In this document: positions 17,070-57,337 of the stretch, one piece after another | How positions within the stretch are numbered: position 1 is the stretch's first letter | How the letters are laid out: every line of letters begins with the position of its first letter | Source of the DNA: Vulcanimicrobiota bacterium | GTDB lineage: Bacteria > Vulcanimicrobiota > JAJTBE01 | Length of the DNA: 64,000 nucleotides | Direction of reading: 5' to 3' | Assembly (NCBI GenBank): GCA_021107945.1 | Contig: JAIORV010000068.1 | Span: forward strand, 1,222 to 65,221 | Position numbers and translations under genes: made by a program | The notes under the pieces: generated by a model | What the model saw: only the letters and a program-made list of their open reading frames with translations | Database searches by the model: none | Told to the model about the DNA's origin: nothing

Positions 17070-17074
17070 CGGAA

Positions 17075-38240: not shown

Positions 38241-38276
38241 GACATATAATCCCTTCGTAATTATTCAGACCCATCA

Positions 38277-38333
38277 CTGTAGGAGAGGCTTCCAGCCTCG
38301 ATTTTCGTGGCAAGATGCCACTCCTACAACTGA
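38277..38333. ncRNA. ~57-nt structured element (outer stem TGTAGGAG/CTCCTACA enclosing hairpins GAGGCT-TCC-AGCCTC and GTGGCA-AGA-TGCCAC), copy 1
   Basis: A second copy at 57283-57337 carries compensatory substitutions in two stems; a degenerate third copy lies at ~43100-43133. Confidence 0.45.
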
Positions 38334-38347
38334 ATATTTTAAAATAA

Positions 38348-40585
38348 TTATATCCATCGTTTGAATATATTAAGTTTCATTATGAAGTCATAATATTTCT
38401 GTGTGATTGGGGAACCGGTGAGTATGGGGAAGAAGAATATCAAAAACGCGATAAGGCCAATGCAGTAAATCACTATGGACACCTTCCCCAGCCTTGAATC
38501 CCGCAGATCGTCCAGGGTCTCGGTCAGGGCAAGAGCCATGAACGGGACGCAGGGAAGCATGTAATAGAAGAAACCTCCCTTGAAATGGAGTCCGCCGTGA
38601 AATGAGAAAGACGAGAGCCAGAAGAGATAGAGTGGTAAGTATCCGCAGAGTATGAAAATGACATTGCGCTCCCTGTCCTTGAACGAGCGGAAGAACATAT
38701 CGAAGAGTACGGGGATAAAACTCCACCAGAAAAGCAAGCTTCCTATTGCGACGATTCCATATATCAAAGCTCCCTTTTTCTCATATTCATACCAGATGGG
38801 TCTTCGCACAATAGGCCACTCCCACATCTGGGAGAGGTACGGGTGCTCAAATTTTTGCTTATAGTGAAAATCGAATGTTCTGCGATAAAGCATTCTTTCC
38901 CATTTTACCTTGTCGGGACTTCTCTTGATTTCAGCAGGGAACAGCGCCTCAATCAGCCGCCGGTTGACCTTGTGTTTTTCTACTGTGGAAATATTAGCAT
39001 AACCTTTTTTCAGGTATTCTCCTGCATCTCCGCCTAAATTTATCCCTGCAGACACTTCCGGTGAATAAAACTCACGATGATTGACAATCTTGTTGAAATT
39101 TTCCAGTATCTTATTCTGCCTTGCTTCCTCCACCTTTTCCTTTAACTTGTAGGAAGTAACAAACTCCTGGTTGTCCCTGTCAAGGAGAGTCCATATTTTC
39201 TGCCTTCCAGCTCCCTGGTTATTTTTGATAGTTGTCAGGAATTTGGACCAGTCGGATACATCGCTGGGGCCGAAATATGATGTATCTTTCATCATAAGTG
39301 GGAGATGAGATAATACAAATGTGCCTGTGAAAACAATGATAAATATGAGAGATAGGATACCCATTCGCTTCCAGGGAAGTTTAAAGAAACCGTCCAGGTA
39401 TTCCCATGCTCGTTTTTTTGGAATCGATGATATAAATGTAAGAACCGCGTGGGCATATCCGAGTACGATACATCCAAGAATAAACGAGCTTGATATTGTG
39501 AGAACCTGGAAAAGCATTATCTTGTTGCTCATGTGGAGTTGGAGGACCTGGGATATCAGTGGTTTCACACCGAAATATACACCGGTGAATGTTGCGGAGA
39601 GAAGTATGATCCGCCACCATCCCACTTTTTCATCCTTCTTGTAATCTATAAATATCAGAGCGCCGATTGCGACAAGTTTGTATATCCAGCATAAGGCAAA
39701 TATACCCTTGCCGGCGGGAAAATATCCCACGAGGGCGATAATTACAATGTCAAGCAGGGGGATGCCGGGAAAAATATACAGAGGTGGAAATTTTATTTCT
39801 TTCTTCGAGGGCTCACCCGTCTTCAGGAACATCATAATGAAGACATAAAGGAAAACGCCTCCCACTCCTGCAAGTGCGCTCAGCTTTACCGAGAACGCCA
39901 ATCCCAGGAAAAGCGAACTCAATATAGCATATTTGTAAGTAATGAAAAATGACTTAATTATATCTATGAGAGAAGATTTCTCTGCTTTTTTCTTGCCGGA
40001 TTTCTTCTCGATTTCTTCGGGTTTCTCTTTGAGATATTGTTCTATATATAAATATGCAAAATAATAACCTATCAAAATAAACGCGGCAATATAAATATCA
40101 AGAGTGGCAATCCTGCTCTGTGCAATATGTAGAAACTCTATAGACAGGAGGGATGCCGACATAATCGCACCAAACCTGCTCTTGAACATGGCAAGTCCCA
40201 GAAGGTACATTATGATAATCATGATAAGCCCGAATGCAACTGAGCCGGCGCGCCATCCCACAGGCTTGTCGCCCATGCATTTCATAAAAGCTGCCATTAC
40301 ATATTTCGCCATGGGTGGGTGTATGTCGTTCCGGTCTATTTTGCCAGGCTCAAGAATGTCTCTCGCCGCCGGTACATAATGCGTTTCGTCGAAATAGACT
40401 TTCGTGGGATATGACAGTCCATAAATACGAATCCAGAGCGAAACAAGAAGAATTACAGTCAAAATGACAACATCAATCCAGCCAAACCTTGTGCTTCCGG
40501 ATTTTTCTTTCTTTTCGATTTTATTCTTCTCGATTTTGTCCCCGGAGGGATCATTTTCTTTTTGTTTCTTGCTTTTCTTTCCCAT
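38348..40585 (-). CDS. GT39/PMT-like phospholipid-carrier-dependent glycosyltransferase (polytopic membrane protein)
   Basis: 745 aa; first periplasmic loop motif YFDETHYVPAARD (DE motif of the GT-C/PMT family); many TM helices; Lys-rich N-terminus. Confidence 0.7.
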   Translation of the reverse strand: MGKKSKKQKENDPSGDKIEKNKIEKKEKSGSTRFGWIDVVILTVILLVSLWIRIYGLSYPTKVYFDETHYVPAARDILEPGKIDRNDIHPPMAKYVMAAFMKCMGDKPVGWRAGSVAFGLIMIIIMYLLGLAMFKSRFGAIMSASLLSIEFLHIAQSRIATLDIYIAAFILIGYYFAYLYIEQYLKEKPEEIEKKSGKKKAEKSSLIDIIKSFFITYKYAILSSLFLGLAFSVKLSALAGVGGVFLYVFIMMFLKTGEPSKKEIKFPPLYIFPGIPLLDIVIIALVGYFPAGKGIFALCWIYKLVAIGALIFIDYKKDEKVGWWRIILLSATFTGVYFGVKPLISQVLQLHMSNKIMLFQVLTISSSFILGCIVLGYAHAVLTFISSIPKKRAWEYLDGFFKLPWKRMGILSLIFIIVFTGTFVLSHLPLMMKDTSYFGPSDVSDWSKFLTTIKNNQGAGRQKIWTLLDRDNQEFVTSYKLKEKVEEARQNKILENFNKIVNHREFYSPEVSAGINLGGDAGEYLKKGYANISTVEKHKVNRRLIEALFPAEIKRSPDKVKWERMLYRRTFDFHYKQKFEHPYLSQMWEWPIVRRPIWYEYEKKGALIYGIVAIGSLLFWWSFIPVLFDMFFRSFKDRERNVIFILCGYLPLYLFWLSSFSFHGGLHFKGGFFYYMLPCVPFMALALTETLDDLRDSRLGKVSIVIYCIGLIAFLIFFFPILTGSPITQKYYDFIMKLNIFKRWI

Positions 40586-40745
40586 TTTTCCTCATTTAAC
40601 GGTCCAACACCTTATTATTAGCTCTTTTAATTCTACACAATAACAAAATAACCTATTAATCATTAAATTTATTTGGATTATTCTGCTTATGTAGCTTCCG
40701 GAAAACCCTATGAAAATTTTCATGTGAGATTTTATATTCAAAGCC

Positions 40746-40780
40746 CTTGACAAAACATCATGAAAGCGTGATATATGATG
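40746..40780 (+). promoter_or_regulatory. sigma70-like promoter TTGACA-17-GATATA upstream of the 40869 gene
   Basis: ttgacaaaacatcatgaaagcgtgatatat read directly. Confidence 0.35.
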
Positions 40781-40868
40781 AGAGAAAGAATAGTTATTGC
40801 CTCAGGGGATAAAATCCCTGACGGTCAGTTTTGAGGTATAAGAAGTGAGATTATTTTAAGGAGGATAT

Positions 40869-41798
40869 TTGATGAATATGTTCGGTGGAAGTTTCATGAT
40901 GATGAATATGGGTAATTCACGAGTTCCCTCAATGCGGAAATTTTTCGATGTGAACGTTGTTCCGCAATTCTGGGCTCCCCCGGCGCAGATAGGTTCTGTT
41001 CCATCTAGTGTGGAAAGTGGAATGATTGACCCCAATTCCATAGTCCCGGGACTGGGATTTGGCGCCAATAATGTCCCTGCACCTCCCACAATGGAAGATA
41101 CAATGGCTCTTATGGGAATGTACCAGAACCAGCAAGCAAACGAGGGGCAGTATTTCAACCATATGTATAATGATGTGCTGGCCAAAAAGGAAGAGGTATT
41201 CAAGGAAAATCACTACAAGTTTGACGAGGATGGCAGTCCGGTTCTAAATGAGGAAACCGGCAAGCCCGAGGTGTTCGAGGGATCAGAGGATGCATTTGGC
41301 AAATTCCAGAGACACCAATGGGAGCAAGGTGTTGCACAGGAAATGGGAGAAAAGCATCAAGAGGAGTTCATGAATTTCGAGAGAACAGCTAACAAGATTC
41401 TGTTGAGTCAAGACAATAAGCCCAGTTCCATGTTCGACATTCAGGCCAGACAGAATAGAAACGAGCAGATCGAAAGTCTTCAGAAACAGGAGCACCAGCT
41501 ACTGGTGTCCCAGAAACAGGAGTACTTGCAAGAAATAGCGGGACACCTGCCCAATCCCGATTCCGAGGGAGAAACGATAGGGCAATACATCGATCAGGGC
41601 TTTCAGGATTATTCTTTGATGACGGAGCAATCTGAAACCGATATAACTACCAGTGATGCAGGACAGGTATTCCAGGATTATTTCGACGCAGTCGGTGACT
41701 TTCTTGCTCAGCAACAACAAATATGGGATGCGTACGGCATGGAATCATTTGATCCCAATGCAATGAAAAACTTTGCCAAGGGACAGAAACTTGTCTGA
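40869..41798 (+). CDS. hypothetical Gln/Met-rich low-complexity protein
   Basis: 309 aa; AAGGAGGATATTTGATG SD; followed by an A-run/T-run hairpin at ~41808-41850 in a convergent gap. Confidence 0.55.
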   Translation: MMNMFGGSFMMMNMGNSRVPSMRKFFDVNVVPQFWAPPAQIGSVPSSVESGMIDPNSIVPGLGFGANNVPAPPTMEDTMALMGMYQNQQANEGQYFNHMYNDVLAKKEEVFKENHYKFDEDGSPVLNEETGKPEVFEGSEDAFGKFQRHQWEQGVAQEMGEKHQEEFMNFERTANKILLSQDNKPSSMFDIQARQNRNEQIESLQKQEHQLLVSQKQEYLQEIAGHLPNPDSEGETIGQYIDQGFQDYSLMTEQSETDITTSDAGQVFQDYFDAVGDFLAQQQQIWDAYGMESFDPNAMKNFAKGQKLV

Positions 41799-41854
41799 GG
41801 CAAATATTTAATTATAAAAAAAAAGACGGCGGGTTTTACCACTCGTCGTTTTTT

Positions 41855-42937
41855 TTATGATTTTTTTTGCTTCTCCGCAAGGAAATGGAATAAGAAAAGC
41901 GCAGCCATAGTGCTTGTAATATCATTATGATCCGCCACGGGATTCAGGTTGATAATATCCAGATATACAGCCATCTTGAACTTGGAGAGTTGCTTTGCTA
42001 TGGAGATGACACATTCAGGGCTGAATCCTCCCGGCAGTGGGAATGAAGTTCCCGGCATCATACACCCGTCACATACATCCATATCGAATGTGATAATCGT
42101 TCCCTCACTCATGTTATTCGCCTGGTTGAGAGCCTGGAAAAGTTCTTTTTTTATATTTTTTATCTTGTCCTGAGAGTGTAACTGGATAATGTCATTATAA
42201 TATGTATGCATCTTGCTTTCCCGGGCGAAACGGGCATAATGCGGCGATATTGTCTCCTTGCGCAGGCCGAAATGCACAACATTTTCCATGTTGAAAAGAT
42301 CCGGAAAATCGTCCATTATTCTAAACATCGAGGATGCGCTGATGAATTTTCCCGGCACGTCATGGAAGTTGAGGTGAGCATCAAATGACAGCAGTCCCAG
42401 CCTGTTGTAAACGCCTGATTCTTTTATGCCTTTTGCACCGGCATATGTTACATCATTTCCACCGCCAATCACAATGGGAAAGACATTCAACTTGATAAGA
42501 CAGGATATTACCTCCACCATCCGGGTGTGAATATCCTGGAGATCAGCATCAAGGTCAATCTTGATATTACCCAGGTCAATAATCATATCACGGGGTTTTT
42601 CAAAATGATTCGAGAGACTGTAGAATGGTTTTCTGAAACCGTATGGGCCGTCCCTGACACCATGTTTTCCACCCATGTTGCGAATACCGATGTCCTGGGG
42701 AAACCCGATAATTGCAAAATCGAATTTCGAAAGATCCAGATCATCACCATTCCAAAAATGGGTTATGTTGCCCATGCACTCGTCTTGAGAGTCGAATTGC
42801 CTGAACACCTCTTCCTGCCTTGTTAAATCAACATTCTTACGGATTATATCAAGATAGCTCAAATCCATTACATTACTCCGTTTCATACCATCGTATTGAA
42901 TTTTATTTTCCACTTGAATATCTGCTATAACGATCAT
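41855..42937 (-). CDS. arginase/agmatinase/formiminoglutamase-family ureohydrolase
   Basis: 360 aa; binuclear Mn-site motifs IVIGGGNDVTY, LSFDAHLNFHD, FDMDVCDG; the true start may be the internal Met at 42868 (GGAG SD). Confidence 0.8.
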   Translation of the reverse strand: MIVIADIQVENKIQYDGMKRSNVMDLSYLDIIRKNVDLTRQEEVFRQFDSQDECMGNITHFWNGDDLDLSKFDFAIIGFPQDIGIRNMGGKHGVRDGPYGFRKPFYSLSNHFEKPRDMIIDLGNIKIDLDADLQDIHTRMVEVISCLIKLNVFPIVIGGGNDVTYAGAKGIKESGVYNRLGLLSFDAHLNFHDVPGKFISASSMFRIMDDFPDLFNMENVVHFGLRKETISPHYARFARESKMHTYYNDIIQLHSQDKIKNIKKELFQALNQANNMSEGTIITFDMDVCDGCMMPGTSFPLPGGFSPECVISIAKQLSKFKMAVYLDIINLNPVADHNDITSTMAALFLFHFLAEKQKKS

Positions 42938-43423
42938 GTGAATCCCTTTTAATAAATTTAACTATTCACCAAAGATGACCTGGGGAGCACATAGCTTTAA
43001 ATAAGCTTAATGCGTCAGAATCCTGACCATGATAAATCAATATAGAGCCTTAAGATAGCCGCCCTCCCGACCAACCTGAAGCGGTGTAAAATCGAGAGTC
43101 ACGAACATCGAGGCTGTCAGCTTCTCCTACAAATAGTTCTTTGAATAGTTCTTTATTTAATAATATAATTTTAAGAGGTATAAATCAATTGTCCTTTGGA
43201 CTTATAAAAAACATTATTACGGTATTTTGACCTACGCCTTGGCGTTACCCGCCTATATTTAATTTGACACCACTGGTATTTACAAACCTGTCGCCATATG
43301 TGATCTTCAACAAAAACGCCAATGTTTTCTAAACAAGATAAAACTCCGCCTAATGCGGAAAATGAATTGGGTGCACATGTTTCCTGTCAAAAATATTTAT
43401 TACTATTCGGATCCCACCATCAT

Positions 43424-43962
43424 GTCATTTCTTCACGAAGCTTTCCCTCGATCGGAGCGAAGTATCTCCCGTAAGAGAGTCGCCCACGCTGTCATTCCTT
43501 CACGGAGCCTGCCCTCGAGCGGAGCGAAGGGTTCAAGGACAGGCTCTGAGCGGAAAAAGATCATCTTACTTTATTCGATCAATCCCGGTAAGAATGTATT
43601 TTACTTACTTCCGATGTCTTCCACAGCGAAGGATCTCCTCTCCCGGGTTCTTCTCACAACAATCATTCTTATTAATACTTGCTCCTCCATGCCACGGGGG
43701 TTGAGATTCTTCGCTGTGTTAATCCTCGTAGATCAAGGTAATCCCGTCTTTGAGAAAATCATAGAAGTAAAGTTATTCTCTCGTGATCCGCTCAGAATGA
43801 CATGCTCAAGTCTTTCTTGATCCGCTCAGAAGGACAAGAAGCCTTGGGAGACTGAATAATTACGCCTGAACCTTTGACAAAAAGTAAATGCACCCAAATG
43901 AATTATTAAAACGGCTTGGTTAAGAGATTCTTCGCGGGCGCTCAGAATGACAATGCGTAAGT
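43424..43962 (+). repeat. interspersed repeat, copy 2 (extended; includes two tandem ~60-bp GTCATTYCTTCACGRAGC...CGGAGCGAAG sub-repeats)
   Basis: Aligns with 24849-25175; the track ORF 43353..43820 across it is judged spurious because the two copies are not conserved in a common reading frame. Confidence 0.75.
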
Positions 43963-44108
43963 CCTGATCTATATTGTATTATGGGAGACAGTTTTAAAAA
44001 AAATGCCAACCCTGAAGTTGGCAATAAAATATCATAATTCAGTTAAAAAACATTAAATAGTCATTTTATCAGTTTTTCCTGATATATTTCAAGAATATTG
44101 GTTTTATC

Positions 44109-45794
44109 CTACTTGTTGGCTTCATAGACTTTTTTGCCGCCAATCCAGGTTGACATAACCCTGGGAAAATCTTTATCAAGCTTATCCGGCTCAATGGAGA
44201 AAAAGTCCTTTTCATAGACTACCATGTCGGCTTTGCATCCGCGATAAAGAACGCCCAAGTCTTTCATGCTTGTTGCTAAAGAACTGCCAAGAGAAAGACC
44301 GCTGATAATATCCTTTTTTTCTAAAGGTTGATGAATGGCAGGTTTATTGCCTCCAGTTTCGGCAACTTTCATAATAGCAGCCGGCGCAGCATATGCCAAA
44401 GGCGAAACGCTGAAATCAGTACTTATGCCCACCGGAATTTCATTTTTAAAAAGTTTTTTTATCTGATAAGACTGGTTGCTATGTTTCCCATAATAATAAT
44501 CAACACCTTTTTCCACTTCCCAGAAAGCGGGCTGGACTGTTACAATTACATGCCCGTTAAACTTTTTAATTCTTGCAATCTGCTCGTCAGTAATGAAAGC
44601 AACATGCGCCAGAACATGTTTCCCTTTTATGCTTCCCTTCTTGGCCACAACCTTATCAAGAGCATCAAGCACCACTTCCACAGCCATATCGCCTTGAGTA
44701 TGATAATGCATATTCAATCCCAAATCTTCGGCCCTTGCAATAATCCTGTTGATGTTTTTCTGTGGACCTGCTTGATCATTGTTTGATACTTCCATGAGTC
44801 CATGATTATTCTGTTGGTTTTTCCAACTGGTCCACGCCTGCCCTCCGGCAAATGCTCCGTCAATAAAAATCTTACAACCATAAAATTTGACCATATCGGT
44901 ATCTTTACCAACATATTTTAAAGCGTCATCTACATCGTCAAGGTTGTAAATTGTATAGCAGTAGTTGACGCGCACAGGAAGGATGCCTTCTTTTTCCATG
45001 TCATAAAAAACTTCAGGTTTCATAAGCCTGCATCCGGGAAGTCCCATAAGATCGACAACAGATGTGTATCCAATAGATGCCCACAATTTCAGCATTTTCT
45101 CCGTTCCAATCTTTACATCTTTGTTATCAATCATACTCATAATTTTATTTCCCGGAATGCTCATCGCAGACTCTCTAAGCATACCGGTAGGCTTTCCATC
45201 TTCTATTATAATTTTTCCACCATAGGGCACTGGGGTTGACTTTGATATATTACAAAGTTTCATGGTAGCGCTATTGATTATTGAGTTATGCCCTAAATAA
45301 TCCACTATAAAGAGTGGTCGGTTCCCCGTTGCCCTGTCAACTTTTACAAGATCTTCTATCGACCATTTGTCATAATCTTTTAAGGAAAAGCCAACACCTA
45401 TCAAGATAGAGCCTTCCGGAACCGTTTTCGCCTTTTTGGCCAACACCAACGCTATGGCATCAACATTATTACAGTTCTGGAGATCTACACCGATATTAAA
45501 GAATGTACCTGCCTCCATTAAATGAACGTGGGAATCAATGAAACCTGGATAAGCTGTCCCTTTGGCAAGATCAACAATTTCAGCATCTTTGAATTTGACC
45601 GGGTCTACGTTATAGGCTTGAACTGTCCCATCCTTTACAAGAAGATTCTTGACAGTTGTCTTTGTGTCAATATATATTGTGCCATTGGTAAAAAGTTTAA
45701 AGGAACTATTTTGAGCTACAGCCGTACCAGTCAAAATACACAAACAGATTGTCGTTAATGTTAAATAAAAAAGAAAACCTTGTGCATATTTCAT
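44109..45794 (-). CDS. secreted metal-dependent amidohydrolase (Amidohydro_3-like)
   Basis: Start moved from 45902 to 45794 (GGGAGGA 5 nt upstream of ATG; the N-terminus MKYAQGFLFYLTLTTICLCILTGTAVAQ is a signal peptide); HxH motif GFIDSHVHLMEAG; later metal-ligand residues (HYHTQGD). Confidence 0.75.
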   Translation of the reverse strand: MKYAQGFLFYLTLTTICLCILTGTAVAQNSSFKLFTNGTIYIDTKTTVKNLLVKDGTVQAYNVDPVKFKDAEIVDLAKGTAYPGFIDSHVHLMEAGTFFNIGVDLQNCNNVDAIALVLAKKAKTVPEGSILIGVGFSLKDYDKWSIEDLVKVDRATGNRPLFIVDYLGHNSIINSATMKLCNISKSTPVPYGGKIIIEDGKPTGMLRESAMSIPGNKIMSMIDNKDVKIGTEKMLKLWASIGYTSVVDLMGLPGCRLMKPEVFYDMEKEGILPVRVNYCYTIYNLDDVDDALKYVGKDTDMVKFYGCKIFIDGAFAGGQAWTSWKNQQNNHGLMEVSNNDQAGPQKNINRIIARAEDLGLNMHYHTQGDMAVEVVLDALDKVVAKKGSIKGKHVLAHVAFITDEQIARIKKFNGHVIVTVQPAFWEVEKGVDYYYGKHSNQSYQIKKLFKNEIPVGISTDFSVSPLAYAAPAAIMKVAETGGNKPAIHQPLEKKDIISGLSLGSSLATSMKDLGVLYRGCKADMVVYEKDFFSIEPDKLDKDFPRVMSTWIGGKKVYEANK

Positions 45795-46149
45795 AAAATC
45801 CTCCCTACAAAATTGTATTTCCTTTTCAGAACTATAATTTGGGAGGGCGAAGCCCATCCCAATATAAATCCCCCCTTTCGCTGACCAGTTGCGTTTTTTC
45901 ATGTCCTTACTTCCATCTACATGATAATTCCCCCTGCCTGAGGAGGTTTACTCTACACTTGCAAATACCCAAATACATACAGGGTCATGGTTAACATTGT
46001 CTTGAGAAACAATGAAAATATTTTTATTTGAATCAATTAAGCCTTTAATATCCCAAGCATCAAAATAATTTGTTAATTTATCTTTTAGTAAATACAATAG
46101 CTTCAAAAGCCCTGTATTGCACAATATTCAATTTTTCCTGGTTGCGGGA

Positions 46150-46225
46150 CAGACTATAAAAACCCGCGCCACGTGATGTAGATATAATTATTTTGCGGGT
46201 TTGAAAACCCGCGCTACGTGGTGGG
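46150..46225. promoter_or_regulatory. direct repeat of GAAAACCCGCGCYACGTGRTG (two copies, each containing the CACGTG palindrome) plus a GCGGGTTT-GAAA-ACCCGC hairpin
   Basis: tataaaaacccgcgccacgtgatg ... ttttgcgggtttgaaaacccgcgctacgtggtg; lies between oadB (stop 46247) and the amidohydrolase start (45794). Confidence 0.35.
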
Positions 46226-46246
46226 AGATAACAAAAAGAAGCTCCG

Positions 46247-47386: not shown

Positions 47387-47389
47387 TTT

Positions 47390-47830: not shown

Positions 47831-47935
47831 AATTCCTCCTATATGGGAAAGGGGAAAGGGGACATGGGAAACGGGATCCGACCTCCGACTCACGGATCCC
47901 GCTTCTCGTCTCTCACCTCTCGCCTCCATTCTATG

Positions 47936-48385: not shown

Positions 48386-48412
48386 ATTTCTAATTTTTTA
48401 CTATTTTAAATA

Positions 48413-49969
48413 CTATAAAGGGATATTTCCATGTTTTCTGGGAGGATTTGTATCCTTCTTGGTGGCTAACATCTCAAGCCCCCGAATTATCCTGAACCGG
48501 GTTCTCCGCGGCTCGATGACATCATCGACAAATCCTCTCTCGGCGGCGACATACGGGTTGGCAAACCTTTCCTTGTAATCTGTCTCCAACTCGCATACTC
48601 TTTTGTCCCTGTCCTCGCGCTCCAATTCTTTCAATTCCTTGCCGTATATGATTTCCACGGCTCCTTTCGGTCCCATGACGGCAATCTCGGCTGTGGGCCA
48701 GGCATAATTCAGATCACCGCGAATATGCTTCGAGGACATGACGCAGTATGCACCACCGTAGGCCTTGCGAGTGATGATTGTGATCTTTGGCACAGTCGCC
48801 TCGGCAAAAGCATATAAAAGTTTTGCCCCGTTCCTGATTATACCTCCGAATTCCTGAACCGTCCCGGGCATGAAACCCGGTACGTCTTCAAGAGTTATGA
48901 TAGGTATGTTGAAGCAATCGCAGAAGCGCACGAATCTGGCTCCTTTTATTGAAGCATTTATATCCAGCACTCCCGCAAGGTATCGAGGCTGGTTTGCAAC
49001 CATACCCACAGGCTTCCCGTTAAAACGGGCGAATCCCACAATGATATTGGGAGCATATAGCCTGTGAACTTCTAAAAACTCACCGTCATCAACCAGCATC
49101 TGAATTACATCATGCATATCATAGGGCTTATTAGGATTATCGGGAATTATCTCGTTTAAAGAGTCTTCCATCCTGTCCACCGGGTCGTTGCAAATAGTTG
49201 CAGGGGGATCTTCCATATTATTCGAGGGCATGTAAGAAAGAAGCTTCCTTAGCAACATCAATGCTTCTTCCTCATTCTCAGCAAGGAAATGTGATACACC
49301 GGAATGAGTACAGTGTATCATGGAGCCTCCCAGCTCTTCATTTGTAACGATCTCGTTCGTAACCGTCTTCACAACTTTTGGTCCGGTAACGAACATATAA
49401 CTGATATCCTTGGTCATAATTGTAAAATCGGTAATAGCCGGGGAATAAACGGCTCCACCGGCGCAGGGTCCCATAATAGCGCTTATCTGGGGTACAACCC
49501 CGGAATACTTAACGTTACGAAGAAAAATATCCGCATATCCCGCCAGGCTGTCAACACCTTCCTGAATCCTTGCGCCTCCCGAATCGTTCAGCCCTATAAC
49601 CGGAACACCCATCTTGGCCGCCATATCCATGATCTTGCATATTTTCTCCGAGAAAGCTTTTGACAGGGATCCCCCAAAAACTGTGAAGTCTTGTGAGAAT
49701 ACCATAACAAGACGTCCGTCTATTGTGCCATAACCTGTTATGACACCGTCCGACGGTATTTTTCTGTCAGCCAGTCCAAAGTCAACACAGCGGTGAGTTA
49801 CAAACATGTCAAACTCCTCGAAACTGTCCTGGTCAAGCAACATTTCAATTCGCTCACGTGCAATGAATTTGCCCTTTTTGTGCTGAGAATCAATCCTCCT
49901 TTGACCACCACCTATCTTGGCCTTTTCTCTCAACTGACTTAATTTTAAAAGTTTGGATTCCAGACTCAT
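48413..49969 (-). CDS. methylmalonyl-CoA decarboxylase alpha / propionyl-CoA carboxylase beta-type carboxyltransferase
   Basis: 518 aa; two crotonase-like halves with conserved [13 protein letters not shown] and GAYCVMS segments; GGAGGG SD. Confidence 0.9.
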
Positions 49970-50011
49970 CCGGTTCCCTCCTGGATTAACTAATTTGAAA
50001 AGACAATAAAT

Positions 50012-50036
50012 AAACGACCTATTAATCGGGTCGTTT
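50012..50036 (-). terminator. hairpin AACGACC-CGATTAATAG-GGTCGTT followed (on the minus strand) by TATTTATTGTCTTTTC
   Basis: Read directly; downstream of the minus-strand GGDEF gene and its repeat block. Confidence 0.45.
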
Positions 50037-50134
50037 AATTTTACGACAGGGATTTGTTATTGATTTAGTTCACAAATCCTTCTGTTTTTCTCTCTTAATG
50101 TAAAAAAAATTGTATTCGCCATATTCAACATAGA

Positions 50135-50290
50135 AATCACGGAGGCCGCGGAGGATAACCGGAGGAAAAATATTGATATCTCTGAGGTAGATGGAAGTGG
50201 GAAATGGGAAGTGGGAAATAACTGGGATTTTAAGCTTTTTCGACACCCTCACATCCCGTCTCCCGCCTCTCGCCTCCCGTTTCCCGCTTC
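50135..50290. repeat. composite repeat: heptads ATCACGGAG-GC-CGCGGAG-GATAACCGGAGG and a C-rich complement of the G-tract module
   Basis: gatggaagtgggaaatgggaagtgggaaataactggg ... cccgtctcccgcctctcgcctcccgtttcccgcttctcgtc. Confidence 0.75.
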
Positions 50291-50297
50291 TCGTCTA

Positions 50298-51203
50298 TCA
50301 TATATATACCCTGTCCCTGCCATGAGATTTGCACATATACATCAACTCATCTGCCCTTTTTAACAGCGAATCGATTGTGTCTTCTTTCCGGGCTATAACA
50401 GCGCCTATAGAGGATGTCACGTTTATTATATTTCCTTCATAATCAAACCCGGACTCTCTCACAAGGCTCCATAGCCTGTTACCGACCGCCTCAAGTTGAT
50501 CTTTCTCGCTGACAAACGGGGCAAGCACAAGAAATTCCTCTCCGCCCCACCTTCCAACCATATCATAACCCCTGACGGCATGAGTCATAGTATTTGCAAC
50601 CATTTTCAGAACCCTGTCCCCGATAGCATGCCCATATTTATCATTTACTTTTTTAAAATTATCAATGTCCAGATAGCATACCCCAAAAGAAATAAGGTGT
50701 CTTCTTAACGCGCTTAATGCCTCTTGCAATCTGAACTCAACCATACGCCGGTTCGGAAGCAGAGTAAGATGATCAATAAATGCTATTTTCTTGAGTTCTT
50801 CCATTTTCTCGACAATTCCCTTTTGCTCGGAGTTGTCGCTGAATATTTCCACCGCGCCGAGAATCTCGTTGTTTTCATCCTCAACAGGGACAACTTTAAC
50901 AAGCAGGGGAATTCTGTGACCTTCCTTGTGTTTTCCATAAAGTCTGCATGACACTGACGCTCTGGTTTCAATCGCTTGTTTAAGTGGGCAGTAACCGTTG
51001 CAAACCTCTCTTCCCCGGTCGTCAATATGAACAAGCACTTCGTCGCGACAACGCTTGCCGATGATTTCATCCGCCTTATAACCGGTTATCTTTTCCGCAC
51101 CCTTGTTCCAGTACCAGATTTTGCAATTCATATCAACAAAAAAAACACCGTCATAAATATTTTTTAAAAGAAGACTTTTAAAATGGTCGCCTTTGTTTAT
51201 CAT
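50298..51203 (-). CDS. PAS-domain diguanylate cyclase (GGDEF)
   Basis: Start moved to the internal Met MINKGDH (AGGGGGA SD); PAS core; active site RWGGEEF; I-site-like RKED. Confidence 0.8.
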   Translation of the reverse strand: MINKGDHFKSLLLKNIYDGVFFVDMNCKIWYWNKGAEKITGYKADEIIGKRCRDEVLVHIDDRGREVCNGYCPLKQAIETRASVSCRLYGKHKEGHRIPLLVKVVPVEDENNEILGAVEIFSDNSEQKGIVEKMEELKKIAFIDHLTLLPNRRMVEFRLQEALSALRRHLISFGVCYLDIDNFKKVNDKYGHAIGDRVLKMVANTMTHAVRGYDMVGRWGGEEFLVLAPFVSEKDQLEAVGNRLWSLVRESGFDYEGNIINVTSSIGAVIARKEDTIDSLLKRADELMYMCKSHGRDRVYI

Positions 51204-51647
51204 TGCTTGCTTCCCCCTGTTCATGAAGAATCCATTAAAAAGGCAATACTTTCAATTTATATTATACCCTTTTCATGCATATTATTTCCCTTCCCACTTC
51301 TGATAAAATCCATTTCCTTTTCTCTATAGCAGGTACCAATTCGCCTGAGCTGTTTTTAAACTATGATGGTAATAAATGAGCGAATCGAAGATGATGCAGG
51401 GGACTAGTTAAAACCACAGAGGACACCCTGAAACAACCCCGCCCTGAAACAAGTTCAGTGTAGGCGGACAGGGTTCAGGGCAGGTACAGAGAATTCTCTG
51501 ATTTATCTCAGTGCTCTCTGTGTTCTCTGTGGTAAAAAAAACATAGGGGCTGAGCAGTATCGACTTTTAAAACACGACCTAATAAAATAAAGAAGAAAAC
51601 TTGTTTTTTAGCAGGAATTCAAACATACGGAAATAATTATCTGAAAC

Positions 51648-52805
51648 ATGAATATCGGAATTTTTACAAATGCATATAAACCAATTATTTCAGGGGTAGT
51701 CAATTCGATAGACCTGATAAAATCAGGACTGGAAGCCCGCGGACACCGGGTTTTTATATTTGCCCCGCGATACAAAGGATATCATGACAAAGAGAAGGAC
51801 GTTCACAGGTTCTTTTCGGTGAATCTGACCAACAGGGTTGACTTCCCCGTTGCGATACCATATTCTTTCAGGCTTTTTAAGCTCATTCCAAACCTGAAGC
51901 TTGATATCATTCATACACACCACCCGTTCATACTGGGAGAGGTTGGCGTAAATTTCGCAAAAAAACTTAAAATCCCGCTTGTTTATACATTCCATACACA
52001 ATTCGAGCAATACTCCCACTATATACCGTTTAACCAGGATATTGTAAGGAAAGTTACCCGATTTTCAGTGATAAAGTATGCGCAGAAATGCAACCTTATT
52101 ATATGTCCCAGCACAACCATTTTATCATTGCTTGATAATTACGGGATAACATCTCCCATAGAAATGATTCCCAATGCCATAGATATATCTGCCTTCGATC
52201 ATCCGGATGCGGAGCCTGTGAGGAAAAAATACGGACTTACACAAAAGGATAAGCTCCTGATTTATGTGGGCAGGATTGGACTGGAGAAAAACCTCGGTTT
52301 TATGCTCAAAGCATTCAAGAAAGCAAGAGAGCGTGTTCCCAATGTAAAACTGATGATCGTCGGTGAGGGGGCAGAGCTTGATTCCCTCAAAGATCTTGCC
52401 GTGAACCTGAAGATCGACGATGACGTAATCTTCCCCGGGAGGGTCGAATACAGCGATATCCCATCATATTACGGCGCGGGATATGCGTTCATAATGACAT
52501 CCACAACCGAGGTGAAGCCCCTCGCCCTCCTGGAGGCTATGGCCTCCGGACTTCCGGTCGTTGCAATATCAGCCGCAGGCTCTTCCGACACAATCACCCC
52601 CGATTTCGATGGACTCCTCACGGATCACGATATGGATAACTATGTGAATGCCCTTCTGAAACTCCTTGAAGACAAGGATTACAGGGATAAGTTGAGTTCA
52701 GGAGCGAAAACGACATCGAAAAAATACTCCATGCTCCAGACCTCTGAAAGACTGGAAAAACTTTTTATGCGAGTAATAGAGGAAAACAGGCAGGTAGCTG
52801 TATGA
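51648..52805 (+). CDS. GT4-family glycosyltransferase
   Basis: 385 aa; N-terminal MNIGIFTNAYKPIISGV; C-terminal EX7E-like region PLALLEAMASGLPVVA. Confidence 0.8.
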   Translation: MNIGIFTNAYKPIISGVVNSIDLIKSGLEARGHRVFIFAPRYKGYHDKEKDVHRFFSVNLTNRVDFPVAIPYSFRLFKLIPNLKLDIIHTHHPFILGEVGVNFAKKLKIPLVYTFHTQFEQYSHYIPFNQDIVRKVTRFSVIKYAQKCNLIICPSTTILSLLDNYGITSPIEMIPNAIDISAFDHPDAEPVRKKYGLTQKDKLLIYVGRIGLEKNLGFMLKAFKKARERVPNVKLMIVGEGAELDSLKDLAVNLKIDDDVIFPGRVEYSDIPSYYGAGYAFIMTSTTEVKPLALLEAMASGLPVVAISAAGSSDTITPDFDGLLTDHDMDNYVNALLKLLEDKDYRDKLSSGAKTTSKKYSMLQTSERLEKLFMRVIEENRQVAV

Positions 52806-53332
52806 GGTTGGAAAAAGGACGTGTTCAGGTATATACAGGAGATGGAAAGGGTAAAACCACCGCCGCCCTTGGGCTTGCGATAAGAGCGGCGGGGCATGGA
52901 CTGAAAATAAAGATAATACAGTTCATGAAGGGCAGGTTCGATTACGGTGAGATTGCCGCGATGAAGCGATTCCCGGAAATTTCCATGCATCAATTCGGGA
53001 GGGTGGATCTTGTATATAAGGGGAAAGAGAAAGAGATTGACTATCAGCAGGCGCAGTCAGCATTAAAAATGGCGATGGATTCACTTCATGATCCCGATCT
53101 GGATATATTGATACTTGATGAAATAAATGTCGCTATTCATTTCGACCTTATAAATACGGAAAGCTTGCTCGATCTTCTGAATAATAGGCCGAAGAATATG
53201 GAGATAATTATCACAGGCAGAAAAGCCCCCGAAGAAATTATAGAAAGAGCGGATCTGGTGACAAGAATGGAATCGGTGAAGCATTATTATGATACGATAA
53301 ACCTGGAAGCACGCAAGGGGATTGAATACTGA
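52802..53332 (+). CDS. cobO: cob(I)yrinic acid a,c-diamide / cob(I)alamin adenosyltransferase
   Basis: 176 aa; P-loop VYTGDGKGKTTAALG; conserved ILDEINVA; ATGA overlap with the GT4 gene. Confidence 0.85.
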   Translation: MRLEKGRVQVYTGDGKGKTTAALGLAIRAAGHGLKIKIIQFMKGRFDYGEIAAMKRFPEISMHQFGRVDLVYKGKEKEIDYQQAQSALKMAMDSLHDPDLDILILDEINVAIHFDLINTESLLDLLNNRPKNMEIIITGRKAPEEIIERADLVTRMESVKHYYDTINLEARKGIEY

Positions 53333-53426
53333 GAGAGATAACGACTTTTTTTTTACCACGAAGTCACGAAGGACACGTAAAGAAAAAAGAGAGAAGAAAT
53401 TGGAAGATGGAAATCCGTCACTCGTC

Positions 53427-53545
53427 CCGGGAAGACGCTGAAACGCCTGAAGCAGTGGGGGTTGTGTGCATTCTCTTCTTCCCCGGATAAATCCGGGGGT
53501 TAATCTCATGGGAGGTTTAAAAACCTCCGCTACCCGACCTCCAGC
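53427..53545 (+). repeat. three-hairpin element, copy 2
   Basis: cccgggaagacgctgaaacgcctgaagc ... ccccggataaatccgggggttaatctcatgggaggtttaaaaacctccgctacccgacctcc; matches 37172-37300. Confidence 0.75.
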
Positions 53546-53625
53546 ATCCGTCCTCCATTACCCTCTGTGCCTGCGCTGAACTTGTTTCAGTGTCCTCTGT
53601 GGTAAAAATTTTAACGGTGAAAAAG

Positions 53626-55989
53626 TTAAGCCCTTCGCAAGATTCCCGTTTTGACCAGTATAAAATAAATAATCCACAGGATAACCGCCGTTCCTTCCAG
53701 GGCGGCAAGGAAGAAGCTGCATCCGGCTATTCCCAGTAACGGGACAAAGAAAGCTCCGATCAAAATCGCTCCAATACATCCTCCAAAATGATCTGCACTG
53801 TCTGTGAACGCCGCCGCTCTGCCGACTTCCGATCCCCACTCTTCCATTAGATACGCCGCCAGCGGAAAAATATGTCCCGAAAGCACTCCCACAATCATCA
53901 CTATAAGGAAAAAAAGAAACTGGTAAGAAGAGGGAAGTTTGCCCAGGAATCCCAGGATAAACGGAAGAGATAAGCCAAGAATGACGATAAGAATCAAAAC
54001 GCCCATAAAGAGCGGCATTACGGAGTCTCCCCCGGATTGCGGAATATTATCAACTTCCTCTTTCAGATCTTTTATTTTCTTCTTTATAATGCGATGAACC
54101 GAGCTTCCACCGAGAAAAAGCCCCAGCATAAAGAGCGCGATGAGGAAGCCTATCTTTTCGAAAAGGTATCCGTATAGACTCTGGTATGAATAACTCAGTA
54201 AAACTGTGAATCCCATGGCACATAATCCTGTTGCAAAAACCGAGAAAAGAGAGCAAAATTTAGCAGATCTTGCTTTACCGGGTCGAATAATTAATGAGCT
54301 TAATAAATATAAAACCACAATTGCAATCAGAATGGATATCCAGAAAACAGTCCCCTTTTTTTCCATAAAGGATATTACTCCCGCAAGCCTGGAACTTGAG
54401 TATTTATCCCATAATTTGAGATTATGGAGGTAAGCTACGGGAGATAGATCAGTATTTATGCGGCCTTTTATATTCTCCCGGTATATTTGCTTTTTGAATT
54501 TCACTCTCTCGGGCTCGTAGATAGTTTCAAATATATAAGGGGTGAAAACTGTGTCGGAAATATTCCTCTCCTGGAATCTTTTGAATAGCACATTATAATC
54601 ATCGCTTGAGGCGGATTTGTCAAACGATGCAAAGAAATGGGTGTGTGTTCCCGGGGACATTGATATATAAGGGAATACTTTATTAACAGTCCTGTAAATC
54701 GTTGTATTGTAATCCGCTATCTGGCTTCCTTTTCCCAGAAAATTCTCCGAGGATGTGATATTAAGCGCAACAACCGCCCCGGGTTTCATTATTCTCAAAA
54801 TCTCCTGAAAAAATTCCAGTGTATAATATCTGTTTATAAATGCCGTTGAGGGATCCGGCATATTAAGAAAAATAAGATCATATTTATTTTTGGTGTTTTT
54901 CACAAAAAGTCTTCCGTCAGAAACGGCATGCTTTACTCTCGGGTTTTGCAGTATCTTTTTCTCTTTCTTTGATAAAACAGGCTCCATCATTTCATAAAGG
55001 GAAGGATCCAGATATACCATGGTGACCGATTCCACGGGCTGTTTCAATGTTTCCTTGATAAATCCCGGTGTTACCTCTCCGATTATGAGAATATTTTTGG
55101 GGGACGGATGTTGTGTGAGTATATGATGCGCCGCCGTTGCATCATCATATTCCACAGGAAACGAAAATCCATAGATCCCGTTAAAAAAGACGTTGTACTG
55201 ATCTTCCTGTTTCGTAAGTGCAAGATTCTGGTATGGAGAATCCCGGCTGTCAAGCAGGGGCATATCTTTTATAAGGGTTCTCCATCTTGCAAGAAGGGTT
55301 GTTCTGTCAATGTATGAGGCGGCAAATGGAGAAATAAGAGTAAAGAATAATACAAGAAAAATAGCTGCTCTTTTAATTTTACCAGCGTGAGACCTTGCCA
55401 AAATATGGTATGCGAAAATGACTCCCGAGAAAAGAATCAATATCAGCGAAGCAATAAACGGCGTTGAGAGAAAACGAATCAATAGGAAACTGAAAACCAC
55501 CCCGCCGGTGAGGGAGCCTAGAGATTCGGATATATATATCCTTGCAACGGCGGTCTTATCTCCAAGTATCCTGCATCCGACAGGGAATGTAAGCCCGATC
55601 AGAAAACCCGGTGGGAAGATGGCAATGAGGGAGATCCATACCATTGAAAGAAACGGCATAAACTGTCCGTACGGCGTGCCGGATAACGCTCTGCTCATTC
55701 TGATGAATGGTATGAGGGCGATTGGCAGGATGGAAAAAATGAAGGTGAGATTTAGAAAAAGTCTGTTATAATCCCTGATGCGATCTGCAATAAGAGGATA
55801 TACTATCGCCCCCGCCGTTATTGCGATCAGCCAGAAGAACAGTATGACCCCGAGTATAAGTTCATTGCCGTAGAAAATCACCAGGAACTCACGAAATAAT
55901 ATCGATTGACATATTGTCGAAGAGAGTCCCATGAGGAAGAATATCATCAATACCAGGATATGCTTTTTTAATGTTTCTTTATTCATCAA
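53626..55989 (-). CDS. membrane-embedded spermidine/spermine-synthase-like protein (MFS-like TM bundle plus aminopropyltransferase domain plus C-terminal TM segments)
   Basis: 787 aa; central domain ILIIGEVTPGFIKE ... YDLIFLNMPDP ... GAVVALN matches the spermidine synthase fold; flanked by ~12 TM helices. Confidence 0.7.
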   Translation of the reverse strand: MMNKETLKKHILVLMIFFLMGLSSTICQSILFREFLVIFYGNELILGVILFFWLIAITAGAIVYPLIADRIRDYNRLFLNLTFIFSILPIALIPFIRMSRALSGTPYGQFMPFLSMVWISLIAIFPPGFLIGLTFPVGCRILGDKTAVARIYISESLGSLTGGVVFSFLLIRFLSTPFIASLILILFSGVIFAYHILARSHAGKIKRAAIFLVLFFTLISPFAASYIDRTTLLARWRTLIKDMPLLDSRDSPYQNLALTKQEDQYNVFFNGIYGFSFPVEYDDATAAHHILTQHPSPKNILIIGEVTPGFIKETLKQPVESVTMVYLDPSLYEMMEPVLSKKEKKILQNPRVKHAVSDGRLFVKNTKNKYDLIFLNMPDPSTAFINRYYTLEFFQEILRIMKPGAVVALNITSSENFLGKGSQIADYNTTIYRTVNKVFPYISMSPGTHTHFFASFDKSASSDDYNVLFKRFQERNISDTVFTPYIFETIYEPERVKFKKQIYRENIKGRINTDLSPVAYLHNLKLWDKYSSSRLAGVISFMEKKGTVFWISILIAIVVLYLLSSLIIRPGKARSAKFCSLFSVFATGLCAMGFTVLLSYSYQSLYGYLFEKIGFLIALFMLGLFLGGSSVHRIIKKKIKDLKEEVDNIPQSGGDSVMPLFMGVLILIVILGLSLPFILGFLGKLPSSYQFLFFLIVMIVGVLSGHIFPLAAYLMEEWGSEVGRAAAFTDSADHFGGCIGAILIGAFFVPLLGIAGCSFFLAALEGTAVILWIIYFILVKTGILRRA

Positions 55990-56011
55990 TTAATTCAACT
56001 TGCTCAATAAA

Positions 56012-56794
56012 CTACATCCCTCTCACCTTAATGTCAAAATTATACATCTTCATCTGTTTGCCAATATAATCATCATCATCCGTCAGAGCAACAATCTCTA
56101 TCCCGGTTTTTTTAGATTTTTCAAATAACAATTTACTGTTCCTGAGATTGACCTGGTTTATCTCACCATCGCCAATTTTCGGGAAAACCTTTTCCAGTAA
56201 TGAAAAGTCCTCCGATGTAAACGGACCTTTAATCTTTATGGAGTCAAAATGATCTACACCATTGACATTCTTGCTGTTGGGTTTCGGACCGGTCCTTAGC
56301 ATATTCCACATCATCGTGTCATATTGAATCCAGCGAATCCACAGGGGCAGGTCTTCTATTATTGGCAGGTCAAGGTATCTCAGGGGCATTGATTTTTTAT
56401 TGCGTTTCACCCCGTAGTATTCTCGATAGGGTTCTTTCACATACACTTTATTTTGACATAAGGTCTTGTATATGACATCCAGATCTTTCACCCTCAAAAA
56501 AAGCATGACAACTCCACGAACACCGCCTTTGTTCCATTGATTCACACAATCGGGACATTCATCAGAAGCACCTCCCAAAAGGCGAAGCATTTCGAAATAA
56601 GAACGCCCTACGAAGGGAGTTATTGTTTTGAAATTCTTCCCTTCTTTCCCGGAATTAAGACTCACCGGAAAACCTGATTTCTCGAATTCTTTCTTGATTT
56701 TTTCGAAAATATATTCAGAATCATCAACCAGTGCAACAAGATGATCTATTTCACTTGAAAGAACAGGATTAATCAATATAAAAAACCTCCCCAA
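56012..56794 (-). CDS. hypothetical protein
   Basis: 260-aa ORF with good codon periodicity; no motif recognised. Confidence 0.45.
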   Translation of the reverse strand: MGRFFILINPVLSSEIDHLVALVDDSEYIFEKIKKEFEKSGFPVSLNSGKEGKNFKTITPFVGRSYFEMLRLLGGASDECPDCVNQWNKGGVRGVVMLFLRVKDLDVIYKTLCQNKVYVKEPYREYYGVKRNKKSMPLRYLDLPIIEDLPLWIRWIQYDTMMWNMLRTGPKPNSKNVNGVDHFDSIKIKGPFTSEDFSLLEKVFPKIGDGEINQVNLRNSKLLFEKSKKTGIEIVALTDDDDYIGKQMKMYNFDIKVRGM

Positions 56795-57282
56795 TTATAA
56801 ATACAAACTTAAAATTCAACATGGGTAGTATTTAATGAAACCTGGAATCAATCCTTCAAAAGCCCAGGTCAGTAGTGTCCTTTGTCCAATCTTTCCGCAA
56901 ACAAAAAGGATACCTTATTTTATCAAGGTCAGCAAACCCAAAACCACTCTTTTACTTGGACAACATTGACTTTTTCTATTTACTTTTCAGATTTAACGCC
57001 CGTATCCTTATGTGTCTTTAATATATTTTTTTTCCTGGGGCTTATCAAAGACGTCTTTCCCAGTTCAGGCCTTTTTTCGTTTACGGCAACATCTTTCTCC
57101 AGATCCGATTTTTCAAAAAATAAATAGAAAAATACAAGGAGACCAAATAGAAAGAGCATGCTAATTAAGAAGAAAAACATTATCACTTTCACCATTTCAC
57201 CCTTCTATTTCTTTTTATACCCATTGTCAGAGGAAATAACCATTTCATGAAAAATTTATTTATATCTATTCAGACCTCCCAC

Positions 57283-57337
57283 AGCAGGAGAGCCTTCCAG
57301 GCTCGATTTTCGTGGCAGGATGCCACTCCTGCAAACA
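57283..57337. ncRNA. structured element, copy 2 (outer stem GCAGGAG/CTCCTGC; hairpins GAGCCT-TCC-AGGCTC and GTGGCA-GGA-TGCCAC)
   Basis: Compensatory changes relative to the copy at 38277-38333 preserve both helices. Confidence 0.45.

Follow-up and report, generated by a model that had tools for sequence, protein, structure and literature searches.

A Hairpin Element in Intergenic DNA of a Vulcanimicrobiota Bacterium as a Probable Inverted Dimer of GTAG-Tagged Repetitive Extragenic Palindromes

Location and Extent of the Hairpin Element

The stretch of DNA analyzed here, 64,000 nt from Vulcanimicrobiota bacterium (GTDB lineage JAJTBE01; assembly GCA_021107945.1, contig JAIORV010000068.1, positions 1,222 to 65,221; hereafter the window), harbors two copies of a small hairpin element at 38277-38333 (copy 1) and 57283-57337 (copy 2), which an initial annotation had put forward as a candidate cis-regulatory RNA or small RNA (sRNA), and which is read here as a probable inverted dimer of GTAG-tagged repetitive extragenic palindromes (REPs). 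The sequences of both copies agree with that annotation, and so does their position upstream of small genes on the minus strand, with the core of copy 1 located 37 nt from the TTG start codon (38240) of a gene for a 208-aa protein (37614-38240) and copy 2 located 88 nt from the ATG (57195) of a 71-aa open reading frame (ORF). Copy 1 takes up most of the 107 nt that separate two co-directional genes on the minus strand; it begins 12 nt past the stop codon of the preceding PMT-like gene (38348-40585) and, taken as a whole element, ends 22 nt before the TTG. Copy 2 lies within the 938 nt that separate the divergent genes 56980-57195(-) and 58134-58835(+). The small 71-aa ORF is probably a real gene, given its ortholog in a relative. 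A degenerate third copy, previously placed at about 43100-43133, was confirmed on the minus strand upstream of the arginase-family gene 41855-42937(-), where it consists of just one hairpin unit plus debris. The three copies are composed as follows:

38263..38335, no strand assigned: copy 1, whole element; ATTCAG and 8 nt of spacer, then two GTAG hairpin units as an inverted dimer, then 1 nt of spacer and CTGAAT
38279..38307, plus strand: copy 1, left REP-like unit; GTAG-GA, stem GAGGCT, loop TCC, stem AGCCTC, then GATTTTCG; 45.7 bits (model R1)
38299..38327, minus strand: copy 1, right REP-like unit; GTAG-GA, GTGGCA, loop TCT, TGCCAC, then GAAAATCG; 43.0 bits
57268..57332, no strand assigned: copy 2; ATTCAG, spacer, inverted dimer; 39.9 and 41.7 bits
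43094..43135, minus strand: copy 3, degenerate single unit; TGTAGGAG-AAGCT-GAC-AGCCT-CGATGTTCG; 36.5 bits

The outer helix of copy 1 pairs 38278-38284 with 38322-38328 and encloses hairpin 1 (38285-38299), the linker GATTTTC (38300-38306) and hairpin 2 (38307-38321), and that of copy 2 pairs 57284-57289 with 57327-57332 around hairpin 1 (57290-57304) and hairpin 2 (57312-57326). Similarity between the two copies reaches left to the motif ATTCAG (38263 in copy 1 and 57268 in copy 2), so that the repeat exceeds the limits initially given, and the right boundary of copy 1 is formed by the inverted motif CTGAAT (38330-38335), no right-hand CTGAAT being present at copy 2. The plus strand of copy 1 reads GTAGGAG-AGGCT-TCC-AGCCT-CGATTTTCG and its minus strand GTAGGAG-TGGCA-TCT-TGCCA-CGAAAATCG, the near-palindromic linker being common to the left and right units. 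Both heads of copy 2 are GCAG, and its stems are GAGCCT/AGGCTC and GTGGCA/TGCCAC. The single unit of copy 3 contains an A.C mismatch, and part of a second tail (CTCGATTTTAC) follows it. From its sequence, the element appears to be a dimer whose GTAG heads point outward and whose tails share the near-palindromic linker (CGATTTTCG), bounded by ATTCAG and CTGAAT, and the outer helix is explained by the inversion of the two REP heads.

A 31-nt degenerate pattern covering copies 1 and 2 matched the window twice, with 0 matches expected. The 51-nt cores of the two copies differ at six positions, four of which represent two compensated pairs, one in the outer helix, where T-A is replaced by C-G, and one in hairpin 1, where G-C is replaced by C-G; the remaining two are one change within loop 2 and one that abolishes the terminal outer pair. 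The paired substitutions initially reported for the outer helix and hairpin 1 are therefore present, with one compensated pair in each, and are accompanied by a further change through which the terminal outer pair is lost; hairpin 2 differs in its loop only, as had been stated. At least two compensated pairs were obtained from six random substitutions in 0.12% of 200,000 simulations, and the observation is therefore considered real and not due to chance.

The GTAG-Tagged Hairpin Family

The hairpin units are dispersed throughout the window, where 10 occurrences of the octamer TGTAGGAG compare with 1.0 expected, and 18 GTAG-headed perfect hairpins with 4.2 in shuffles. The common module, G(T/C)AG-GA, G N5, TCC(N) or TCT, N5 C and GA(T/A)(A/T)3 CG, has a unit size of about 29 nt, a perfect 6-bp stem and a loop of 3-4 nt, and occurs about 18 times in the window, with 17 family-I units listed by the covariance model. 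With the model built from 14 modules, all four halves of copies 1 and 2 score 40-46 bits and the monomers 35-50 bits. Seven monomers represent subtype A1, with the stem GGGACG/CGTCCC, and four represent subtype A2, with GGGATG/CATCC(C). The head is GTAG in both halves of copy 1, in copy 3 and in all seven A1 units; GCAG in both halves of copy 2 and at 10403; and degenerate (AAAG/ACAG) in A2 units. A second GTAG family (family II) reads GTAGC-GCGGGTC-TTYA-GACCCGC across its copies. All 17 family-I and 3 family-II units are intergenic relative to ORFs backed by Pfam or synteny, and further units are present in 40 kb of flanking DNA of the same genome (where L047, for example, comes from ENA ERZ26872897, another assembly of the source organism). 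The other units of the window are as follows:

2042..2081, minus strand: family-I REP-like monomer, A1; CTGTAGGAG-GGACG-TCCY-CGTCC-CGATAA; 46.7 bits
6553..6592, minus strand: family-I monomer, A2; AAAGGAG-GGATG-TCCC-CATCC-CGATAAACGG; 38 bits; stem compensated relative to A1
6703..6742, minus strand: family-I monomer, A1; 47.2 bits
6811..6850, minus strand: family-I monomer, A2; 36.6 bits
10201..10240, minus strand: family-I monomer, A2, with a G.T closing pair; 34.9 bits
10288..10327, minus strand: family-I monomer, A1; 47.4 bits
10372..10411, minus strand: family-I monomer with GCAG head; TTGCAGGAG-GGATG-TCCC-CATCC; 27.7 bits
17100..17139, plus strand: family-I monomer, A1; 47.4 bits; 17 nt past the stop of 16640-17083
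18838..18877, plus strand: family-I monomer, A1; 49.7 bits; 24 nt past the stop of 18068-18814
20740..20770, plus strand: family II; GTAGC-GCGGGTC-TTTA-GACCCGC, then a T-run; others start at 46217(-) and 53533(-)
37449..37488, minus strand: family-I monomer, A1; 46.5 bits; in the next intergenic spacer downstream of the 208-aa gene
57487..57526, plus strand: weak degenerate family-I unit; GGGAG-GGATT-TCCC-AACCC-CGATAAAT; 20.4 bits, E 0.028; about 150 nt from copy 2
62917..62956, plus strand: family-I monomer, A1; 47.3 bits; between convergent genes

The family-II copy at 20740-20780, located between convergent genes, contains a run of 8 T and resembles a working intrinsic terminator that bears a GTAG tag.

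Orthologous Sites and Further Copies

Differential states of the element were observed at orthologous sites of the relatives, which are denoted L040, L039, L041, L052 and L043 (a 7.6-Mb genome) and share protein identities of 87%, 81%, 79%, 78% and 60%, respectively. L039 displays the same gene order at the copy 1 site (PMT, 208-aa gene and DUF4127) with an element-free spacer of 36 nt between PMT and the 208-aa gene, compared with 107 nt in the window, where 73 nt of element are added to 34 nt; the site looks like a clean insertion when the two sequences are compared, and the 20 nt preceding the start codon of the 208-aa ortholog are conserved (GAAGGGATTATAT.T.TTG). L040 carries one REP-like unit at this site, GTAGGAG-AGGCA-AGA-TGCCT-CGATTT, after the same ATTCAG-N8 lead; a simple deletion from the dimer of the window was excluded as its source, as the unit ends in the tail CGATTT and not in a second head. 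The PMT site is thus empty in L039, single in L040 and occupied by a dimer in the window, which is a sign of mobility. At the copy 2 site, L041 retains a 67-aa ortholog of the small ORF together with some 40 nt of upstream DNA proximal to it, and contains a different repeat module and no dimer.

Two further dimers of the same subtype were detected. Copy 4 (L047 934-1015) occupies a site between murE and murF in the same-genome flanking DNA and has complete ATTCAA...CTGAAT ends, an intact hairpin 1 of the GAGCCT type, a hairpin 2 with three uncompensated substitutions, unchanged loops and linker, and a right head mutated to GCAA. A full-length decayed dimer with four broken pairs and two G.U pairs is located in L039 (1331-1410) upstream of the arginase-family gene, the same intergenic neighborhood as that of copy 3 in the window. 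The murE-murF spacer of a relative contains one unit with a GCAAGAG head like that of the decayed half of copy 4, and this shared head suggests an old insertion that drifted in both lineages. The single murE-murF unit of L052 (1790-1870) is bracketed by a perfect 13-nt direct repeat, ATTGAAATTTCAC, which resembles a target duplication; transposition of the kind carried out by REP-associated tyrosine transposases (RAYTs) or IS200-type elements is not expected to produce one.

Repeats also accumulate elsewhere in this lineage. L043 contains six tandem 63-nt units (14811-15185), each with GTAGGAG-TGGTC-TCT-GACCA-C; a CRISPR array was ruled out for these hairpins, as the entire 63-nt unit is repeated at 91% identity with no unique spacers. 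The murE-murF, murF-mraY and mraY-murD spacers of the dcw cluster measure 414, 367 and 446 nt in the source genome (L050 11486-15097) against 196, 105 and 12 nt in L052 (1788-4557), and this intergenic expansion is driven by repeats. The murF-mraY spacer (L050 13358-13420) harbors an A-type GTAG hairpin with a second small hairpin (CCCTGAAACAAGTTCAGGG) in its loop, by all appearances a nested insertion of one mini-repeat into another.

Covariation, Folding and Database Searches

Covariation was assessed for the unit on 14 aligned module copies, among which five distinct stems occur, all of them perfectly complementary. Pairing in the 6-bp stem reaches 94%, with four of six pairs doubly changed and 21 compensated cells, and the covariation score of 0.723 compares with 0.248 in shuffled alignments (0/500 as high) and with at most 0.154 when the partners were slid. 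The stems observed in the window and the relatives are GGGACG, GGGATG, GAGGCT, GAGCCT, GTGGCA, GAGGCA and GTGGTC, each with its exact complement. The earlier proposal of a selected structure is thus supported in that the stems are constrained, but what is constrained is a family of dispersed repeats, not an RNA specific to one locus. For the dimer, an alignment of four copies with a three-helix structure yielded three compensated cells at two pairs and eight unpaired cells, and 32 of 500 shuffles scored equally high, so that the signal is no longer distinctive. Two of the four dimers are intact and two are decayed, with uncompensated stem changes, the observation that the initial annotation had named as speaking against its reading, found in both copy 4 and the L039 dimer. 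Informative G.U pairs are few, namely two in the outer helix of copy 4 (plus strand) and two in the decayed L039 dimer.

RNA folds of the plus strand were more stable than shuffles, with z of -6.6 for copy 1 and -4.0 for copy 2, and the corresponding values for single-stranded DNA (ssDNA) were -4.9 and -4.0. The minimum-energy fold of copy 1 is a single long imperfect rod rather than two hairpins, because its two hairpins are nearly complementary to each other, and the two-hairpin form is forced by copy 2 only. On the sense strand, copy 1 RNA reaches -34.3 kcal/mol with z of -5.5 (RNA folds of about -31 to -34 kcal/mol), and copy 2 (minus strand) folds no better than shuffles (z -0.9). The ssDNA folds of the two decayed dimers gave z of -2.4 and -1.3.

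An Rfam search, which the initial annotation had proposed as a check, returned 0 matches at gathering thresholds over the whole window, and the best permissive match, at E=1, scored 16 bits where the threshold is 84 bits. No pair of a sigma-70-like promoter and a terminator brackets copy 1 or copy 2. The only match to a terminator consensus consists of hairpin 1 and GATTTTCG on the plus strand, antisense to the neighboring genes; an intrinsic terminator was rejected, as no U-run is present on the sense (minus) strand. The pattern AGGAG N6 TTCCA N6 GATTTTCG matched 36 loci in GTDB-representative contigs, among which the source genome is not included; none has the closing helix, and the loci are chance matches or one unrelated conserved Streptomyces gene. 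A pattern fitting the three window copies matched in JGI metagenome contigs just one 2.5-kb contig with the same locus of the same organism; patterns of the dimer type and of the A1/A2 type had no matches in IMG/VR viral contigs; and an exact look-up of the 208-aa protein retrieved only a 951-nt Logan contig.

Arrays Associated with the Hairpins

An ORF for a PF13366 PDDEXK_3 ('GxxExxY') nuclease (15797-16234; site 15766-16234) is located between an hdrA-like gene and mvhD and is bracketed by imperfect inverted 9-mer repeats of about 30 nt, AACGCGGAGGACGCAGAGGACGCAGAG on one side and CTCTGCGGTCTCCGCGATCTCCGCGTT on the other; judged by this layout, the site looks like a small inserted cassette. 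At least 12 ORF-less 9-mer modules (TTTTTCACC(R)CAGAG..CGCAGAGG) were observed in intergenic DNA, such as those at 2000-2024, 6771-6797, 6912-6940, 10152-10185, 10354-10379, 26402-26445 and 29877-29902; and at 35348-35390, 37353-37393, 51507-51540, 61579-61612, 62873-62896 and 62969-62990. Most are no more than about 100 nt away from an A-type GTAG hairpin, and they may be solo ends of PDDEXK_3 cassettes. Long arrays of degenerate heptamers (GGANNNC, CGGATAA or GGGAAAG types), often with a 14-nt periodicity, directly follow stop codons and abut GTAG hairpins, as at 6596-6720, 17057-17100, 35424-35535 and 47831-47927 in the window and, at the orthologous spacer, at 7540-7690 in L039.

Comparison with Known Repeat Systems

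GTAG-tagged REPs are palindromes of 20-40 bp with an unpaired GTAG (sometimes GYAG; GTRG allowed) at one end, stems of 6-13 bp (mostly 6-9), short loops and sub-families distinguished by complementary stem changes; they often form inverted dimers, heterodimers included ('HH' where the GTAG ends lie outside), and tandem clusters that include flanking DNA, and they reside mainly between unidirectional or convergent ORFs, near the upstream stop codon, with the GTAG-1 and GTAG-2 families having a dinucleotide between tag and stem and a 3-nt motif after the stem (PMC3733652). The units described here resemble GTAG-1 and GTAG-2 in their GTAG/GYAG tag, GA dinucleotide, 6-bp stem, loop of 3-4 nt and GAT/GAA motif. 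They share with GTAG REPs the complementary-stem sub-families, singletons, HH dimers and heterodimers, tandem clusters and intergenic location, with copies 1 and 2 corresponding to the 'HH heterodimer' of Di Nocera et al. 2013 (PMC3733652). Every sequence-level defining feature of GTAG REPs that is testable was found in them. Differences were also observed: in stem and loop sequence the units differ from the GTAG families with which they were compared, the likeness lying in the described architecture; they reside in an uncultivated lineage whose G+C content is 42%; both tails of the dimer share a spacer of just 7 nt; and the monomers are embedded in heptamer and 9-mer arrays.

REPINs, pairs of REPs in inverted orientation, form the unit of replication in Pseudomonas fluorescens SBW25, where compensatory hairpin changes are common and singlets are decayed remnants (PMC3116915). 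The dimers here likewise consist of an inverted REP pair capable of forming one hairpin as ssDNA or RNA, with compensatory changes, decayed copies and singlets, and tandem clusters with flanking sequence; SBW25 REPINs are 71-110 nt in length, have a longer spacer and number hundreds per genome beside an identified RAYT (PMC3116915), compared with three dimers and no RAYT seen in about 100 kb here, and copy 2 prefers a Y-shaped two-hairpin fold over a single rod. The RAYT binds the hairpin and its 5' GTAG in ssDNA, and the crystallized E. coli REP starts with GTAGGA (PMC3479197). The 5' GTAG right before an imperfect hairpin and the pairs of alternating orientation are shared with the E. coli REP and bacterial interspersed mosaic element (BIME) system (PMC3479197), whereas TnpA_REP recognizes longer stems of 10 bp that contain a bulge, and defined linker motifs separate the partners in a BIME; binding by a protein is demonstrated for the E. 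coli REP and would apply by analogy to the present units. The subterminal hairpins of IS200/IS605 elements, short imperfect hairpins with a guide tetranucleotide that are recognized in ssDNA by an HUH/Y1 transposase (PMC3479197), are similar in having a short hairpin plus an adjacent tetranucleotide, but they flank a transposase gene, one per end of the insertion sequence, and no ORF is present between the hairpins here.

Origin of the Element

Within the family the stems covary; orthologous sites hold the dimer, a single unit or neither; and copies decay by uncompensated mutations. The element is best read, with a probability of roughly 0.78, as an inverted dimer of two GTAG-tagged REPs, equivalent to a REPIN or a small BIME, rather than as a regulator of neighboring genes, and as such it is an ordinary selfish or structural repeat of intergenic DNA. 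By analogy with REP/RAYT systems, the units would fold as hairpins in ssDNA, a RAYT (HUH/Y1) would recognize the hairpin with its 5' GTAG and copy or move the dimer, and only copies with still-pairing stems would have been propagated, so that young sub-lineage copies would differ by compensated pairs and old copies would drift. Copy 1, if transcribed, could form a stable 3' or intercistronic stem-loop that stabilizes or partly terminates the upstream mRNA, and there is no indication of a regulatory effect on the small membrane genes downstream.

Several observations weigh against the REP reading. Base changes in GTAG impair cleavage by the E. coli RAYT, and the heads of copy 2 are GCAG instead of GTAG, a GYAG degeneracy described for some families. 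RAYTs are normally single-copy genes; no Y1_Tnp Pfam match was obtained among the window ORFs, no dedicated RAYT search having been made, and no RAYT/Y1 gene appears in the Pfam annotations of about 40 kb of same-genome flanks, that is, in about 100 kb in all. The same 100 kb or so contain only three dimers of this subtype and one degenerate unit. Monomeric A-type units sit within heptamer and 9-mer arrays, which is no described REP feature; the sites of copies 2 and 3 are flanked by divergent genes, where REPs are usually under-represented; and the G.U pairs are too few to separate RNA-level from DNA-level selection.

The element could alternatively be REP-derived and kept mainly for an RNA-level role as a 3'-end or intercistronic stem-loop, protecting mRNA from 3' exonucleases or attenuating read-through, with copies persisting through that benefit and not through ongoing transposition. 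Copy 1 directly follows a stop codon (12 nt) in a co-directional pair and folds very stably on the sense strand (-34.3 kcal/mol, z -5.5), the A1 monomers at 17100 and 18838 start 17-24 nt past stops, copy 4 lies between murE and murF, and REPs are reported mostly just downstream of ORFs, where they are thought to act as RNA hairpins (PMC3733652); but copies 2 and 3 are located between divergent genes with no upstream mRNA end, a U-run after the structure is absent on the sense strand, old copies decay freely and relatives manage without the element at the same sites, so this role is considered unlikely as the main reason for its maintenance. A cis-regulatory leader RNA or independent sRNA that controls the downstream small membrane or lipoprotein genes, as initially annotated, is already largely refuted and is now extremely improbable. 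It would account for an intact copy 37 nt upstream of one small membrane-protein ORF and another 88 nt upstream of a second on the same strand, for the two compensated pairs common to copies 1 and 2, for their stable folds and for the conservation of the 71-aa ORF in a relative. However, the halves proved to be dispersed repeat units, and the orthologs in L039 and L041 lack the element although the proximal upstream DNA is conserved; the proteins downstream of copies 1 and 2 (208-aa gene and 71-aa ORF) have no relationship with one another, and copies elsewhere adjoin murF and an arginase-family gene; and uncompensated changes occur in the stems of further copies, copy 2 folds no better than shuffles on its sense strand (z -0.9), and neither an Rfam match nor a promoter/terminator pair was found around the element.

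The association with the arrays raises a further explanation, an undescribed composite repeat of GTAG hairpins, heptamer arrays and 9-mer 'TTTTTCACCGCAGAGG' modules that is spread or maintained by the PDDEXK_3 nuclease and not by a RAYT. The inverted 9-mer arrays that flank the PDDEXK_3 ORF, the recurrence of the same module at least 12 times without an ORF, mostly less than 100 nt from an A-type hairpin, and the recurrence of the layout in relatives are consistent with it. We know of no mechanistic precedent in the PDDEXK_3 family, which counts against this explanation; no 9-mer or heptamer array is attached to the dimers of copies 1, 2 and 4, whose own ends are ATTCAG/CTGAAT, and GTAG with a hairpin is a specific signature of RAYT substrates (PMC3479197), and spread by the nuclease is regarded as highly improbable. 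A scenario in which the GTAG hairpins are one component of a lineage-typical composite repeat (with heptamer arrays and 'TTTTTCACCGCAGAGG' modules) and intact dimers were also recruited as RNA structures is only a shade more credible and still improbable. Should a PDDEXK_3 nuclease, and not a RAYT, spread or process the elements, this would represent a new kind of repeat-nuclease partnership, and the association of the hairpins with heptamer arrays and PDDEXK_3-flanking 9-mers is the only part that may repay further work.

Read as REP dimers, these elements document GTAG-tagged REPs, inverted dimers and tandem clusters included, in a little-studied uncultivated lineage, which becomes a place to look for a RAYT and for a link to the heptamer and 9-mer arrays. 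Recognition of the family explains much of the unusually long intergenic spacers of this genome and prevents spurious annotation of non-coding RNAs and small ORFs over the repeats. Compensatory base changes that distinguish two copies of a small hairpin element are not enough on their own to infer a regulatory RNA, since REP/REPIN repeats show the same signature because only foldable copies propagate.

Other Repeats in the Window

The divergent region that contains copy 2 also harbors three tandem 173-nt units (57517-57911) of 96-98% identity; an internal inverted repeat (GTGTCTGTCCCTAATTAA / TTAATTAGGGACAGACAC) is present in each, and they have no Rfam match. Eight tandem 33-nt (11-codon) repeats were observed at 29942-30304, inside and just upstream of the end of ORF 29996-31384(-), whose product is periplasmic-binding-protein-like.

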